Positions 26,122 to 31,806 are shown, counted from the first letter of the stretch. The stretch is 64,000 bases of DNA from Candidatus Fonsibacter sp. (GCA_040404065.1 JBBAJM010000001.1); one strand, 5' to 3'. A program made the numbers and translations. Notes: generated by a model not told the origin, from the letters alone.

Positions 26122-27408
26122 ATGAAAGTTATAAAATTTAATAAAAATAGATTTTTAAAAGATTTAGATTTTATTTCTCGAAATAGAAAATCTAATTTTT
26201 CTAACAAAGCTAATATTGTAAAAAAAATTCTTAGTGATGTTAAAACTAAAGGAGACAATGCTGTTGTTTATTATCAAAAGAAATTTGACAGAAGCTCAGT
26301 TTCTAAAAAAAATATTATTTTAACAGATAAAGAAATTAATAAAGTTATAAAAGATTTAGATTCTTCAGTAAAAAGTTCTATCAAACTTGCATTTGAAAGA
26401 GTTAAAGACTTTCATAAAAGACAATCAATCAAGAGTTATAAATATTTTGACAAATATAAAAATGAATTAGCTTATAAAGTTTCTCCATTAAATAGAGTTG
26501 GAATATATATTCCAGGAGGAACGGCTAGTTATCCAAGCTCAGTTATTATGAACGCTGTTCCAGCGATTGTTGCTGGTGTAAAAAACATTACTTTATGTAT
26601 GCCTACACCAAATAATAAAATTAATGCGGGTGTTGTTTATGCAGCTAAAATATGTGGAGTAAAAAAAATTTATAAAATAGGGGGCGCCCAAGCAATAGGA
26701 GCTTTTGCTTATGGAACAAATACCGTTACGAAAGTTGATAAAATTGTAGGACCTGGCAATATTTTTGTAACTACAGCTAAAAAAGAGGTTTTCGGTGAGG
26801 TAGGTATAGATATGGTCGCGGGACCTTCAGAGATTACAGTAGTTGCAAACGAGGATAACGATTCAACATTAACAGCTATAGATTTATTATCACAAGCTGA
26901 ACACGATGAGTTATCCCAGACAATATTAGTAACAACAAATTTAAAATTTGGCCTAGAGGTTAAAAATAAAGTTTACAAATTTTTAGATGTTTTGCCTAGA
27001 AAGCAAATAGCCAAAAAAGCAATTAATGATAATAGCGCGATTATAGTTTGTAAAAACTTTAAAGAAGTTGTTAGCGCTGTAAACGATATAGCACCAGAGC
27101 ACCTTGAGATTAAAACTAAAAATAATTCATTTTTGGCAAAACAAATTAAAAATGCTGGATCAATTTTTTTAGGAGAAAATTCACCAGAAGCCATAGGAGA
27201 TTATTTAGCAGGACCAAATCATGTTTTGCCAACAGCTGGATCAGCAAGATTTGCTTCAGGGTTATCTGTTTATGATTTTTATAAAAAAACATCAGTTATT
27301 AAAATGAGTAAACAAGGTCTTGAAAAGATAGGAAGATCAGCTATACACCTAGCAAATTACGAGGGTTTATTTGCGCACTCTCAATCAATTAGAATTAGGA
27401 TTAGTTAA
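26122..27408 (+). CDS. hisD: Histidinol dehydrogenase
   Basis: [61 protein letters not shown] 26122 is preferred over 26074, which overlaps DUF2948. Confidence 0.96.
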
Positions 27409-27410
27409 AT

Positions 27411-27629
27411 ATGGCAAAAGAAGAAATGTTGGAATTCAAGGGATTGGTAACTGAGTTGTTACCCAATGCCATGTTTAGAGTGAAATTAGAAAATAATCAT
27501 GAAGTATTGGCTCATACAGCTGGAAAAATGAGAAAGAACAGAATTAGAGTTTTAGCTGGAGATGAAGTTATGGTTGAAGTTACCCCATATGATTTAACTA
27601 AAGGCAGGATTATTTTTAGATTTAAATAA
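27411..27629 (+). CDS. infA: Translation initiation factor IF-1
   Basis: [25 protein letters not shown]...[14 protein letters not shown]. Confidence 0.98.
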
Positions 27630-28207
27630 TGAATGAAACAAAACATAGTTTTGTTTTAGCCTCTGCATCACCAAGAAGAATAGAGCTTCTTAATAATATA
27701 AAAATCTTTCCAAAAATAATTTATTCTACAGAGATTAATGAAGATATAAATAGTAAAGAAAATCCTAAAAATTATTGTATTAGAGTTGCAAAAAATAAGG
27801 CTCTTAAAGCTTTAGAAAAATATCCAGAAGAATTTGTTTTATCAGCTGACACTATAGTATTTTGTAGTAATAAAATTTTTTTAAAACCAAAAGACAAAGA
27901 AGAAGCTAAAAAATTTTTAACATTCTTTTCAGGACGAAAACACAATGTTTTGACATGTGTATGTTTGGCAAAAAAGAACTTAATTAAAGTTAAAAAGGTT
28001 ACAACAAAAATTACTTTTAAAAGATTAACTAAGCAGGAGATCGAAGAATATTTATTAACAAATGAGTGGAAAGATAAAGCCGGAGCTTATGCCATACAAG
28101 GCTATGCTGAAAAATTTATTAAAAGAATTAATGGTTCGTATTCAAATGTAGTTGGTTTGCCTTTGTTTGAAACTTACAATTTGCTTAATTCACAAGGTTT
28201 AATTTAA
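27629..28207 (+). CDS. maf: Maf/YhdE-family nucleoside triphosphate pyrophosphatase
   Basis: LASASPRR.ELL, SADTIV, DKAGAYAIQG, GSYSNVVGLP. Confidence 0.93.
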   Translation: MNETKHSFVLASASPRRIELLNNIKIFPKIIYSTEINEDINSKENPKNYCIRVAKNKALKALEKYPEEFVLSADTIVFCSNKIFLKPKDKEEAKKFLTFFSGRKHNVLTCVCLAKKNLIKVKKVTTKITFKRLTKQEIEEYLLTNEWKDKAGAYAIQGYAEKFIKRINGSYSNVVGLPLFETYNLLNSQGLI

Positions 28208-28254
28208 TATTTTAATTGATTAATAAATTGTTTTGTGAAAAAAACATGCCCAGT

Positions 28255-28330
28255 GGTCTGGTAGCTCAGTTGGTAGAGCAGAGCCCTGAAAAGGCTTGTG
28301 TCGCTGGTTCAATTCCAGCTCAGACCACCA
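28255..28330 (+). tRNA. tRNA-Phe(GAA)
   Basis: Acceptor GGTCTGG/TCAGACC, A73, CCA; anticodon arm GAGCC-CT-GAA-AA-GGCTT; 76 nt. Confidence 0.96.
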
Positions 28331-28338
28331 TTTTTTAA

Positions 28339-28367
28339 TTGCAATTTCATTCTCAGATTGATAATCA
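28339..28367 (+). promoter_or_regulatory. Putative sigma70 promoter for the His-rich uORF / tRNA-His-hisS-hisZ-hisG unit
   Basis: TTGCAA (28339-28344), 17-nt spacer, TAATCA (28362-28367). An alternative -10 is GATAAT at 28360-28365. Confidence 0.35.
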
Positions 28368-28380
28368 ACCTCTAATTGAA

Positions 28381-28443
28381 ATGATTAAAAAATATATATC
28401 TACTCACAGACACCATCCTCATGCTGAGCATGCGCTTAGCTAA
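28381..28443 (+). CDS. Putative histidine leader peptide (20 aa, MIKKYISTHRHHPHAEHALS), missed by the ORF track
   Basis: ATG 28381 to TAA 28441-28443, with 5 His codons (CAC, CAC, CAT, CAT, CAT) within codons 9-17. It ends 47 nt upstream of tRNA-His-hisS-hisZ-hisG and forms a GC-rich patch in an AT-rich spacer. Confidence 0.7.
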   Translation: MIKKYISTHRHHPHAEHALS

Positions 28444-28490
28444 TAGAATTATATATTTAAAAACAAAATAATATTATAAACAAAAAACAT

Positions 28491-28567
28491 GCAGCTGTAG
28501 CTCAGTTGGTTAGAGCGCTGGTTTGTGGAACCAGATGTCGGTGGTTCGAATCCACCCAGCTGTACCA
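28491..28567 (+). tRNA. tRNA-His(GTG), G-1-less type
   Basis: Acceptor GCAGCTG/CAGCTGT, A73, CCA; anticodon arm CTGGT-TT-GTG-GA-ACCAG; the base at -1 is T. Confidence 0.96.
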
Positions 28568-28572
28568 AATTA

Positions 28573-30009
28573 ATGAATAAAAAAACTTTTAAACCTAGCA
28601 GTGAATTACCCGCAGGTTTTGTAGATAGACAAGAAGAAGAGTTATTAGCGAGAGATCTTTTAATATCTAATATTAAAAAGATCATGGCTAAATATGGCTT
28701 TCAATATCTTGAAACACCTAGTTTTGAGTTTACCGATAGTATTGGTAAATTTTTGCCTGACAAAGATAGACCATCGGAGGGAGTTTTTTCTTTTGAGGAT
28801 GACAAAAAATGGCTTTCGTTACGATATGATTTAACAGCTCCACTAGCTAGATATGCAGCTAAAAACTTTAATAATTTACCAAGACCTTTTAAAAGGTATC
28901 AACTAGGAACAGTTTGGAGAAATGAAAAGCCAGGTCCTGGAAGATTTAGAGAATTTTTGCAATTTGATGCAGACTATATAGGAACAAGCAATTTATTTGC
29001 TGACGCAGAGTTGTGTTGTTTAATTTCAGAAATTTTAAGTACCTGCGGTTTAACAAAAAAAGAATTTATAATTAAAATATCTAATCGTAAATTAACAAAA
29101 GGATTATTAGAAAAGCTAAAAATCAACGATGAAAATAAACAATCAATAGTACTAAGAGCTATTGATAAGTTGGATAGAGTTGGATTAGAGGGTGTGCAAT
29201 ATCTTTTAGGAAAAGGCAGAAAAGATAAATCTGGAGATTTCACAAAAGGAGCCGAGTTAGATGAATCTCAAATTAAAGACATCATTAATTTTTTAAGCAT
29301 TAAAGATCTTTCGGATAATAATTTTGAAAAAATAGAAAAGATAGCTGGAGATAACCAGACTATATTAGACGGAGTGAATGAGCTCATTTTAATAAAGAAA
29401 TATTTTTCATTATTAAAATTCGATAATTTTAAATTTGATCCAACTGTTGTTAGGGGACTTGAATATTATACAGGTCCTATTTTTGAGGCTAATCTTACAT
29501 TCGGCGTTACAAACAACAAAGGTGAGGTAATTGAATTTGGATCAATAGGAGGCGGAGGTAGATATGATGATCTTGTAAAACGTTTTAATAATCAAGATTG
29601 CCCTTCAACTGGTATTTCAGTTGGTCTTGATCGTTTAATTTATGCAATTCTTCAAAAAAATAAAATTAAAGCAGAAAAAGAAACGCCAGTTTTGATATGT
29701 GTTTTCGATGAAAAGTATATGGATTACTATGTAAAAATTTTAAATTTGTTAAGAACAAAAAATATTAGCGCTGAAATTTATTCAGGAAGCGCCAATATAA
29801 AATCACAATTAAAATATGCCGACAAACGAGGATGCAATTACGTTATTTTATGTGGCGAAGATGAGGTAAGCAAAAATTTAGTTACAATTAAAAATTTAGA
29901 AATAGGCAAACAAATGTCAGATTCTTTAAAAGACAGGGATGACTGGAGAGAATCTTCTAGCTCTCAAAAAACAGTAGCTTTAGATCAACTTTTAAATGAG
30001 ATTAAATAA
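28573..30009 (+). CDS. hisS: Histidyl-tRNA synthetase
   Basis: LRYDLTAPLAR, motif 2 WRNEKPGPGRFREF.Q.DAD, VRGLEYYTG, GGGGRYD, GISVGLDRL. The ORF-track start (28525) lies inside tRNA-His, so ATG 28573 is used. Confidence 0.96.
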   Translation: MNKKTFKPSSELPAGFVDRQEEELLARDLLISNIKKIMAKYGFQYLETPSFEFTDSIGKFLPDKDRPSEGVFSFEDDKKWLSLRYDLTAPLARYAAKNFNNLPRPFKRYQLGTVWRNEKPGPGRFREFLQFDADYIGTSNLFADAELCCLISEILSTCGLTKKEFIIKISNRKLTKGLLEKLKINDENKQSIVLRAIDKLDRVGLEGVQYLLGKGRKDKSGDFTKGAELDESQIKDIINFLSIKDLSDNNFEKIEKIAGDNQTILDGVNELILIKKYFSLLKFDNFKFDPTVVRGLEYYTGPIFEANLTFGVTNNKGEVIEFGSIGGGGRYDDLVKRFNNQDCPSTGISVGLDRLIYAILQKNKIKAEKETPVLICVFDEKYMDYYVKILNLLRTKNISAEIYSGSANIKSQLKYADKRGCNYVILCGEDEVSKNLVTIKNLEIGKQMSDSLKDRDDWRESSSSQKTVALDQLLNEIK

Positions 30010-31097
30010 TGAAACAGGGTTTAGAAAAAAAGCGATTAAAAGAGGATCTTTCTAAAAAAATATTAAGCAATTTTAAGAAAAACAAATTTATTTTTACAGA
30101 TTTGGATCTGTTAATTGATACTAATTTATTAACCGAGCGATCAGGAGAGCAATTTAAAAAATTTACATTAACTTACAAAGATTTATTTGGAAAAGAAATT
30201 AGCTTGCGTCCTGATTTAACCGTTTCAACAGCATTAAAATATATTCAGGAAAAAAAGAATAAAGAAGAAAAGTATTGTTACTACGGAAGCGCTTATCGAT
30301 TAGACAAAGAAGGAGATTTAAAAGTTTTTGATCAAATAGGTTGTGAAATTATTAATTCAAATAGTGATAAATCAGAAAATATTTTGATTAATTCCATATT
30401 AGAACCATTAAAAAAAATCAAGAAGCTAGAAGTTATTTTAGGTGACGTTGGATTATTTAAAGTTTTAGTAGAATCCTTAGAACTTCCGTCTAGATGGAAA
30501 TTAAGATTAGTAAAAAATTTTTCTAGAAAAGAATATTTTGAGGATATGTTGAAAAGATTAGAAACAAATTATGATCTTGATCAAAAAGCAATTAAATTAG
30601 ATACAAAAAGACTTCAAGATTTAGAAAAACTAGATCCAAATGAAATAATTGGTGGAAGGACAGTTTCTGAAATTATTAAACGTTTTAATAAAAAGATTAA
30701 AGATCCAAGGGATAGTTATAAAGGAAAAAAGAATGTTAATATTATTAGAGATTTTTTAAACATTAATACCTCAATTCAGAAGGCAGAAAGTGCAATATTA
30801 TTTTTTTTCTCAAAAAATAAATTAAACAATTTATCTATTAAAAGTTATTTAAAAAAAATTAGCAGAATAAATAAAGAAATAGGAAAAAAATATTCTATTA
30901 ATTTTAAAACAAATTTTGGAAGAAATACTGATTATTATACCGGCATAGTCTTTTTAGCCTGTGTAAAAAAGAACTCTAAAATTATCGAATTAGCAAGAGG
31001 TGGAGAGTATAATGGTCTGCTTAGAACTCTTGGTTATAAGAAAAATATATCAGCTATAGGTGGAGCAATTAATTTAAATGAATTAATAAATTTGTAA
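30009..31097 (+). CDS. hisZ: ATP phosphoribosyltransferase regulatory subunit HisZ
   Basis: HisRS-like paralog (LRPDLTV, YYGSAYR, QIGCE, YYTGIVF, GGEYNGL) located between hisS and a short hisG. Confidence 0.88.
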   Translation: MKQGLEKKRLKEDLSKKILSNFKKNKFIFTDLDLLIDTNLLTERSGEQFKKFTLTYKDLFGKEISLRPDLTVSTALKYIQEKKNKEEKYCYYGSAYRLDKEGDLKVFDQIGCEIINSNSDKSENILINSILEPLKKIKKLEVILGDVGLFKVLVESLELPSRWKLRLVKNFSRKEYFEDMLKRLETNYDLDQKAIKLDTKRLQDLEKLDPNEIIGGRTVSEIIKRFNKKIKDPRDSYKGKKNVNIIRDFLNINTSIQKAESAILFFFSKNKLNNLSIKSYLKKISRINKEIGKKYSINFKTNFGRNTDYYTGIVFLACVKKNSKIIELARGGEYNGLLRTLGYKKNISAIGGAINLNELINL

Positions 31098-31101
31098 AAT
31101 T

Positions 31102-31770
31102 ATGTCTAAAATAAAAATAGGATTGCCAAGCAAAGGAAGATTAAAAGATGAATCTTTAGCTTTTTTAAAAAGCAAGAATCTAGAAGTGATGAATTCTTTT
31201 GGAGAAAGAAACTATTTCTTTAATATTAAAAATAACAGTGAAATAGATGGAGTTTTTTTACACGCTAGAGAAATAATCGAAAGAATTAATGACGGCACTT
31301 TAGATATTGGTATTTCAGGGCTAGATCTACTTAAGGAGTTGCCAGACGTTTATTCACAAAATGTAAAAATTTTTAAAAAACTTAATTTTGGTTTTGCTGA
31401 TTTAGTAGTAGCTATACCAAAAGATTGGTTAGATGTTCAGAATATGGCTGACTTAGAAGAGGTAAGCTTTGAATTTAGAGAAAAGTACGGACGTCGAATG
31501 CGAGTTGCTACTAAATATCCAAATTTAACTGAATCTTTCTTTTTATCGAAAGGAGTAAGTCAGTTTCGAGTTGTTCCAAGTTTAGGAGCAACAGAGTCTT
31601 ATCCATTCACTGGCTCTTCTGAATTGATTACGGACATAACCTCTACAGGCTCAACTTTAAAAGCTAATAATTTAAGAATTATAAATGATGGGACTATATT
31701 AAAAAGTTCTGCCTGTATTTTTGTTTCTAAAAAAATTGCGAATAGTAAGTTTTTGAATTTTTTAAAATAG
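31102..31770 (+). CDS. hisG: ATP phosphoribosyltransferase, short form
   Basis: IGLPSKGRL, LDIGISGLDL, RVATKYPNL, GATE...DITSTGSTLKANNL; 222 aa, so it lacks the C-terminal regulatory domain. Confidence 0.95.
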   Translation: MSKIKIGLPSKGRLKDESLAFLKSKNLEVMNSFGERNYFFNIKNNSEIDGVFLHAREIIERINDGTLDIGISGLDLLKELPDVYSQNVKIFKKLNFGFADLVVAIPKDWLDVQNMADLEEVSFEFREKYGRRMRVATKYPNLTESFFLSKGVSQFRVVPSLGATESYPFTGSSELITDITSTGSTLKANNLRIINDGTILKSSACIFVSKKIANSKFLNFLK

Positions 31771-31772
31771 TC

Positions 31773-31806
31773 AAAAAAAAACCCCAGATTTTTAGTCCGG
31801 GGTTTT
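31773..31806 (-). terminator. Intrinsic terminator of groEL (probably bidirectional with hisG)
   Basis: The minus strand reads ACCCCGGA-CTAAAAA-TCTGGGGT followed by a run of about 8 more T (fully paired with one G.U). The plus strand has one A.C mismatch and TTTT. Confidence 0.85.

Follow-up and report, generated by a model that had tools for sequence, protein, structure and literature searches.

A conserved short ORF with clustered histidine codons as a candidate histidine-sensing leader of the tRNA-His-hisS-hisZ-hisG unit in SAR11 bacteria

SAR11 ranks with the most numerous bacteria of both oceans and lakes, and its streamlined genomes encode very few protein regulators. In the freshwater branch of this group (LD12/Candidatus Fonsibacter), the 160-nt spacer between tRNA-Phe and tRNA-His contains a short open frame with a cluster of His codons, and the question raised by this locus is whether the frame is a leader ORF through which the histidine genes behind it are controlled. 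We analysed a stretch of 64,000 nt from Candidatus Fonsibacter sp. (GCA_040404065.1 JBBAJM010000001.1), called the window hereafter, for which an unannotated His-rich leader peptide had been predicted; the relatives of its HisS place it in freshwater SAR11 (LD12). The sequence itself showed the position of the ORF, its 20 codons with five His, and the distance of 47 nt from its stop to tRNA-His(GTG) exactly as predicted (ATG ATT AAA AAA TAT ATA TCT ACT CAC AGA CAC CAT CCT CAT GCT GAG CAT GCG CTT AGC TAA), and the expected succession of tRNA-His, hisS, hisZ and hisG downstream was confirmed by ARAGORN, Rfam and Pfam (Table 1). On the same strand, hisD, infA and maf are found upstream of the spacer. 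When ten versions of the leader peptide were looked up by exact match in a collection of 15 billion proteins, none of them was present.

Table 1 Features of the leader locus in the window (positions counted from the first nucleotide of the window).
Feature	Position	Strand	Remarks
tRNA-Phe(GAA)	28255-28330	+	ARAGORN; Rfam tRNA 68.6 bits; upstream neighbour in LD12 only
-35-like hexamer TTGCAA	28339-28344	+	conserved in the LD12 alignment; pattern match
Extended -10-like TGaTAATCA	28359-28367	+	inside block ATTGATAATCAACC; alternatively GATAAT, 28360-28365
Leader ORF	28381-28443	+	20 codons plus stop, MIKKYISTHRHHPHAEHALS*; unannotated
His-codon cluster	28405-28431	+	5 CAY in 9 codons: 28405, 28411, 28414, 28420, 28429
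Hairpin B	28423-28440	+	GCUGAGC 28423-29, loop AUGC 28430-33, GCUUAGC 28434-40; 7 bp
AU-rich linker	28444-28490	+	47 nt, stop codon to tRNA-His; almost pure A/U; strongly conserved in LD12
tRNA-His(GTG)	28491-28567	+	CCA encoded; ARAGORN; Rfam tRNA 73.4 bits
hisS, histidyl-tRNA synthetase	28573-30009	+	Pfam tRNA-synt_His and HGTP_anticodon
hisZ, ATP phosphoribosyltransferase regulatory subunit	30009-31097	+	Pfam tRNA-synt_His only; 362 aa
hisG, ATP phosphoribosyltransferase, short form	31102-31770	+	Pfam HisG
Bidirectional intrinsic terminator, canonical	31778-31806		G+C stem between A-run and U-run; closes the operon

The CCA of tRNA-His is separated from the hisS ATG by 5 nt in the window and by 3-6 nt in 69/69 loci checked, and no Shine-Dalgarno (SD) sequence precedes hisS (28564-28575). 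Excision of the tRNA would leave the hisS mRNA essentially leaderless, an arrangement that recalls the tRNA punctuation of mitochondria. Many database entries of HisS are 494 aa (LD12) or 460 aa (marine) long as opposed to 478 or 444 aa (28525-30009 in the window; P0001, P0004 and others); they are 16 spurious residues too long because gene callers start at a GTG inside tRNA-His. In tRNA-His, G-1 is not encoded (T is found at position -1), and the acceptor stem carries a G1-U72 pair with A73 before the CCA (28490-28567); we take it to be the atypical tRNA-His type described for a group of alphaproteobacteria. Further downstream, the hisS stop and the hisZ start share one nucleotide (TAATG, 30007-30011), which suggests translational coupling, and the gap between hisZ and hisG is 4 nt.

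On the other side of the leader ORF, a run of six T (28331-28336) follows directly 3' of the tRNA-Phe CCA, and this run, combined with the stems of the tRNA itself, might terminate transcription of tRNA-Phe; even so, RNA contigs cross it. In several LD12 genomes (L001, L003, L005 and others), an ATG inside tRNA-Phe opens a 65-codon frame that joins the leader ORF in phase (MPSGLVAQLVEQ...MIKKYIST...). Because this longer frame reads through the tRNA gene, it was taken as an artefact.

Is the cluster of His codons expected by chance? The frequency of His codons in the six frames of the window is 1.97%, from which at least five His codons are expected in ~3.5e-7 of nine-codon stretches, or ~0.04 times per whole window, a figure that excludes the extra condition of adjoining His genes. 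Exactly one such stretch exists in the six frames, and it is the cluster of the leader ORF. Of the 496 ATG ORFs in the window with a length of 10-40 aa, the leader is the only one with five His in nine residues. The unusual His density that had been claimed for this His locus is thus a property of this ORF alone in the window.

The comparison with relatives covered 62 sequences, namely the window and 61 loci from LD12 and a marine SAR11 sister clade (~70% HisS identity), a locus being counted if at least 150 nt were present upstream of tRNA-His. An ATG ORF of 19-27 codons, ending 44-66 nt before tRNA-His, was found in 62/62 sequences, and the order leader, tRNA-His, hisS, hisZ, hisG was conserved. 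In the 51 distinct ORFs there was no in-frame stop in 1208 codons, as opposed to 105 and 132 stops in the other two frames. All 21 LD12 loci with the spacer keep the ORF without any indel; with the window included, five His codons are present in 19 of these 22 sequences, four in one and three in two. Counts as low as 2-3 occur in some genomes, a point against control through His codons.

The His codons became easy to compare when the leaders were anchored at a hairpin near the end of the ORF (hairpin B). The codon directly 5' of this hairpin is His in 51/51 distinct leaders (CAT in 38, CAC in 13), the codon at position -3 is His in 45/51 (CAC in 29, CAT in 16), and one of positions -5, -4 and -2 is usually His too, the counts for His at the anchored positions being 51/51, 45/51 and 34/51 distinct leaders. 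The CAY codons are unpaired in the predicted structures and their third base is free to be C or T, a signature of selection on the codon or the amino acid and not on base pairing. The N-terminal halves of the peptides are unrelated between subgroups (MIKKYIST.., MIKNLKIT.., MIIKKTISTLR.., MIKKQKKPCLF..). As the original prediction had it, the 61 further loci retain a short ORF with His codons alternating between CAC and CAT. Its other expectation, poor conservation outside the His codons, held between clades and failed within LD12, where conservation extends over all 160 nt of the spacer. Spacer identity is 83-87% between LD12 subclades in which the four-fold sites of hisS are only 38-44% identical (saturated), and as judged from this comparison the entire LD12 spacer is under purifying selection.

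The surroundings of the leader differ between the clades. In the marine clade, a cold-shock gene and a hairpin are located upstream in place of tRNA-Phe, and in one marine subgroup tRNA-Phe is ~545 nt away. One marine locus (L024, 1-252) gave a partial, sub-threshold Rfam match to the cspA thermoregulator, covering the cold-shock gene region (48.6 bits; gathering score 78). Of the marine metagenome contigs with hisS (among L033-L106), roughly half begin ~20-150 nt from its start, in or just before tRNA-His, and the assemblies seem to break at the conserved tRNA. Two loci that appeared to be exceptions without the ORF (L047 and L068) were rejected as such, as linear ARAGORN finds no tRNA there.

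With these data, a chance ORF within a conserved promoter or spacer region can be weighed. Short ORFs are plentiful in AT-rich spacers, and the conservation of the LD12 spacer at the DNA level would preserve such a frame together with everything else. However, the His cluster is unique, its CAY codons are conserved, in-frame stops are absent, and the ORF is kept in clades in which the sequence upstream of the His cluster is unrelated. A chance ORF is very unlikely, to the point of being excluded for practical purposes.

Beside the His codons, the other conserved feature of the leader is hairpin B, which the original prediction had omitted. It abuts the last conserved His codon (28420), the stop codon is located directly 3' of it, and the local segment folds with an energy of -10.4 kcal/mol. 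Across the loci, the hairpin has 6-7 bp and ends 0-6 nt before the stop codon, and in one subgroup each arm is one base shorter (GCUGGC/GCUAGC). In 47 sequences, 92.7% of the cells were paired and the changes were only one-sided and wobble-compatible; no double compensatory change was found among these 47 sequences, and we regard the formal covariation support for hairpin B as weak. The codons give a further indication. Inside the hairpin, Ala is always GCT and Leu is always CTT (invariant columns), and the codon between them is GAG, AAG, AGG or GGG (E/K/R/G), that is, RRG opposite UU. From the fixed codons and this kind of variation, we conclude that selection here is on RNA pairing and is indifferent to the peptide.

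Marine loci have a second hairpin (hairpin A) with His codons in its loop and 5' arm. Here, compensated pairs were found, one from C-G to U-A (CACUCU/AGAGUG to CAUUCU/AGAAUG, Val to Met) and one from G-C to A-U (GCAAAA/UUUUGC to ACAAAA/UUUUGU, Ala to Thr/Val). Two further pairings were considered and dropped. The LD12 arm GCUGAGC is complementary to GCUCAGU in the D-arm of the tRNA, but by eye the marine arms are not. The other pairing was between the AAGGAG box of marine loci and CUCU/CUCC in the His region, and the AKHHFAH subgroup does not have it.

The hairpins raise the possibility that the element is a non-coding structured RNA or a protein-binding operator, for autoregulation by HisRS or another protein or as a processing signal of the tRNA precursor, and that the open frame is only a by-product. 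Such an element would account for the RNA-level constraint on two hairpins and for the conservation of the LD12 spacer outside the ORF, and there is precedent in operator RNAs that control aminoacyl-tRNA synthetase genes, such as E. coli thrS. It would not account for an AT-rich frame that is free of stops while the two other frames have 105 and 132, for an ATG kept at a fixed distance from the promoter-like -10, or for unpaired CAY codons that are conserved with free third positions. Moreover, the hairpins bear no likeness to either the anticodon arm or the acceptor arm of tRNA-His and match no Rfam family. Taken on these grounds, a purely non-coding element appears unlikely, with little weight left to it.

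Upstream of the ATG, the LD12 sequences share the conserved TTTGCAATTT, then ~10 variable nt (counted from the end of TTGCAA, the variable part is 15-17 nt), and then ATTGATAATCAACC, which is invariant in 22/22 LD12 sequences. In the window, TTGCAA is followed after 17 nt by TGaTAATCA, and this -10-like element ends 13 nt before the ATG (13-15 nt in LD12). For the marine loci, the geometry was scored by a script, except in six loci that were read by eye: TTG(C/A)A(A/T) is followed after 16-17 nt by TAnnnn, often TG-extended, which in most loci ends 6-8 nt before the ATG. By pattern match, LD12 and the marine clade thus share the geometry TTGnnn-16/17-TGnTAnnnn. If these elements are used as a promoter, the LD12 transcript would have a 5' UTR of ~6-8 nt and would be near-leaderless. 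For the marine loci, the shorter distance between the -10-like element and the ATG predicts a leaderless transcript that starts at or next to the AUG.

No SD sequence precedes the leader ORF. Since SD-like motifs upstream of the long ORFs in the window are at background level (17% vs 13%), the missing SD is no argument against translation of the leader. Lake and marine metatranscriptome contigs contain the leader, contiguous with tRNA-His and the start of hisS, and RNA contigs extend from the upstream genes through the leader. The RNA data are assembled contigs, in which the ends follow strain variation and the depth is flat, and they speak for presence and continuity only.

An ORF with a promoter-like element of its own and a hairpin at its 3' end could also be an independent small gene for a His-rich micropeptide, either metal-binding or trans-acting, whose hairpin stabilises or ends a short transcript while another promoter, located in the linker, serves tRNA-His-hisS. 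HxHHxH-like motifs are capable of metal binding, peTrpL is reportedly an example of a trans-acting leader peptide, and the linker is strongly conserved with TATAAA- and TATTTA-like boxes. The peptides do not behave as expected for such a function, however: the spacing and number of His vary (HxHxxH, HHxxH, HxHHxHxxH, HHHxH), and apart from His, conservation is confined to the residues that the RNA hairpin dictates. In addition, the ORF always accompanies hisS-hisZ-hisG, with or without a tRNA between. As for the second promoter, there is no TTG -35 at constant spacing in the linker, and the TATAAA/TATTTA boxes are at clade-dependent distances from the tRNA; we rejected it as a feature of the locus and kept it only as part of this rival. 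A stand-alone His-rich micropeptide is, as far as these patterns indicate, unlikely, though it deserves some weight.

If the ORF is a leader, how could it act on the genes behind it? The blocks ATATTTAAAA and TTATAAACAA of the LD12 linker are common to the marine loci, where their spacings and their distances to the tRNA differ. A scan of 27500-29000 found no terminator-like site between the leader ORF and tRNA-His, and the sequence directly 3' of hairpin B is UAAUAGAAUU, not a U-tract. The genome does use canonical terminators, as is seen from the one after hisG. Inspection of the A/U-only linker and of the tRNA turned up no conserved sequence that could pair with either arm of hairpin B as an antiterminator. 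With regard to Rho, C exceeds G only ~2:1 in the leader, a composition that points to a weak loading signal. The Rfam search of 27000-30000 at E<=10 returned tRNAs only, with neither the His leader (RF00514 His_leader) nor a T-box; six marine loci searched at E<=1 likewise gave no RF00514 and no T-box, only tRNAs plus one partial, sub-threshold match to a cspA leader.

A small feature of the marine linker is found in its last ~15 nt before tRNA-His, where a strong SD-like AAGGAG is located 5-7 nt before an AUG (L023-L100). The G of this AUG is the first base of tRNA-His, and the AUG opens a mini-ORF of three codons, AUG CAG CAG UAG. In LD12, the AUG before tRNA-His is present and AGGAG is absent.

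A more distant syntenic clade, known from marine contigs with a HisS that is ~50% identical, shows a different arrangement of the same elements. The order there is maf, tRNA-Phe, tRNA-His ... hisS-hisZ-hisG, with groEL behind hisG on the opposite strand; the two tRNA genes are next to each other, and between them and hisS there is a transporter gene in divergent orientation. Directly before hisS, this clade has a leader of 11 codons with the pattern MxxxxHHHxHI (MITLLHHHYHI, MLIIKHHHSHI, MFIIKHHCLHI, MFKFKHHHYHI and MIVFTHHHIHI), preceded by a promoter-like pattern, TTGACW-17-CAWTTC-6/7-ATG. A 9-bp hairpin follows immediately 3' of the leader stop, and in five sequences double compensatory changes were found in four of its pairs. 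After this covarying hairpin, the contigs L107-L114 have a conserved AACCCC(C)U-run block and then a second hairpin next to the hisS SD. A long-range closing helix (upstream AUAGGG) combined with the U-run was predicted in L110 only and not in the others, and it was set aside. Because the distant leader adjoins hisS without tRNA-His, the association of a His leader with hisS-hisZ-hisG is older than the placement of tRNA-His between them.

This arrangement bears on a narrower version of the sensor, in which a His-sensing leader acts only on hisS-hisZ-hisG and the tRNA comes from read-through or from its own promoter, for example with Rho loaded on the leader and terminating in early hisS. Since the leader of the distant clade is directly before hisS, with tRNA-His elsewhere, the ancestral target would be hisS-hisZ-hisG; a constitutive supply of the tRNA would also be safer for the cell, and there are the RNA contigs that run from the upstream genes through the leader. 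Against it, no termination site in hisS was seen in the sequence, the Rho-loading signal is weak, and every locus has a gap of 3-6 nt between the tRNA and the hisS start, so that both products are tied to one precursor. We consider a target restricted to hisS-hisZ-hisG to be improbable.

The reading that we prefer is that the ORF is the leader ORF of the whole tRNA-His-hisS-hisZ-hisG unit, controlled by ribosome stalling at the His codons. We hold it to be probable and give about the same weight to the sensing of His-tRNA, whereas the output step can only be sketched. The proposed course of events is as follows. Transcription would begin at a sigma-70-like promoter with an extended -10 just upstream of the ORF, 6-8 nt before the ATG in the window and at or next to the ATG in the marine relatives, and the leader ORF would be translated without an SD. 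A shortage of charged tRNA-His would stall the ribosome on the His-codon cluster. Because the last conserved His codon abuts hairpin B, the mRNA channel of a ribosome waiting there would contain the 5' arm, and the hairpin would stay open. With ample His-tRNA, the ribosome would reach the stop codon behind hairpin B and be released, after which the hairpin could form again. Whether hairpin B is open or closed would then set the passage of RNA polymerase through the AU-rich linker into tRNA-His, hisS, hisZ and hisG, possibly by hairpin-dependent pausing, by weak factor-assisted termination in the linker, or by Rho. Since RNase P would subsequently sever leader and tRNA, any control must be co-transcriptional. 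The cell may have no other tRNA-His gene, in which case strong attenuation would be costly and the control cannot be tight.

Among the hallmarks of a leader-peptide attenuator, the locus has a short ORF before its cognate operon and a conserved His-codon cluster in a variable peptide, and it lacks an intrinsic terminator and a mutually exclusive antiterminator. The original prediction of sensing through a His-codon leader is therefore upheld for the anatomy and for the conserved ORF and CAY cluster, but scanning and inspection gave no classical terminator/antiterminator. The further idea, that the sensed tRNA, its synthetase and HisZ/HisG share one leader, has the conserved gene order on its side, so that the placement of the sensed tRNA in the unit is anatomically right; here too, no classical switch was found. 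The most far-reaching version is that one leaderless His-codon sensor couples the tRNA, the synthetase and the committed biosynthetic enzyme without a classical switch, and that excision of the tRNA yields a leaderless hisS mRNA. We put this version forward tentatively, as a possibility with the chances somewhat against it.

The locus can be compared with several known systems. T-box leaders of hisS and his genes in Firmicutes likewise take the charging of tRNA-His as input and have targets of the same type, but they bind uncharged tRNA directly and need no ORF, and no T-box was matched here. In E. coli, a leader peptide rich in the cognate amino acid, pheM, controls the aminoacyl-tRNA synthetase operon pheST through a classical terminator/antiterminator; the leader here resembles it in the position of a cognate-amino-acid-rich ORF before a synthetase operon and differs in that pheM-pheST has the classical switch and no tRNA gene in the unit. 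Enterobacterial hisL (RF00514) shares with the present leader a short ORF with a His-codon cluster before histidine genes, presumed ribosome stalling, and a hairpin near the regulatory codons. However, hisL has seven His in a row whereas here 3-5 are dispersed, and here there is no match to RF00514 at E<=10, no U-tract terminator and no antiterminator. The ORF described here also runs through its hairpin, its start is predicted to be leaderless or near-leaderless, and the unit begins with a tRNA gene and a synthetase whereas that of hisL is hisG-I.

The closest gene context in the literature is that of bacilli, in which hisZ and a hisS paralogue are preceded by His leader peptides (Naville and Gautheret 2010, PMC2965389). 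There, too, a His-codon ORF precedes genes of the hisS/hisZ family, and the likeness noted is one of gene context; those leaders belong to another phylum, were found through premature terminators, of which there are none here, and have no tRNA gene in the unit. The closest architecture is that of mycobacteria, in which leaderless polycysteine short ORFs act on how the following gene is translated (Canestrari et al., bioRxiv 10.1101/834739). Like the present leader, they are a first cistron, rich in the codons of one amino acid, in an operon that matches it; they are leaderless, as is predicted for the marine leaders, and stalled ribosomes alter the downstream RNA structure, as is proposed here. 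The difference is in what follows, as the next gene here is tRNA-His, and hisS, without an SD, begins 5 nt after the tRNA. Since a tRNA has no ribosome-binding site, the output must be transcriptional or co-transcriptional.

In the literature that combines Pelagibacter or SAR11 with leader peptides, histidine, attenuators or leaderless transcripts, we found no description of this leader, and a 2009 survey of structured RNAs in Pelagibacter ubique mentions neither hisS nor histidine. As read from its sequence features, the locus is unusual in its predicted leaderless or near-leaderless start, the lack of a canonical terminator, the cognate tRNA in the unit and the tRNA-hisS junction of 3-6 nt. 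The missing terminator makes it a test case for non-canonical attenuation, and the junction makes it one for tRNA-punctuated, leaderless translation in bacteria. If our preferred reading of a His-codon leader acting on the whole unit is true, this would be, as far as the searched literature shows, the first leader peptide before the cognate tRNA gene itself, in a closed homeostatic loop in which the sensed molecule is a product of the unit that it regulates. For SAR11, a conserved ribosome-based histidine sensor would then be a cheap layer of regulation that gene callers miss.
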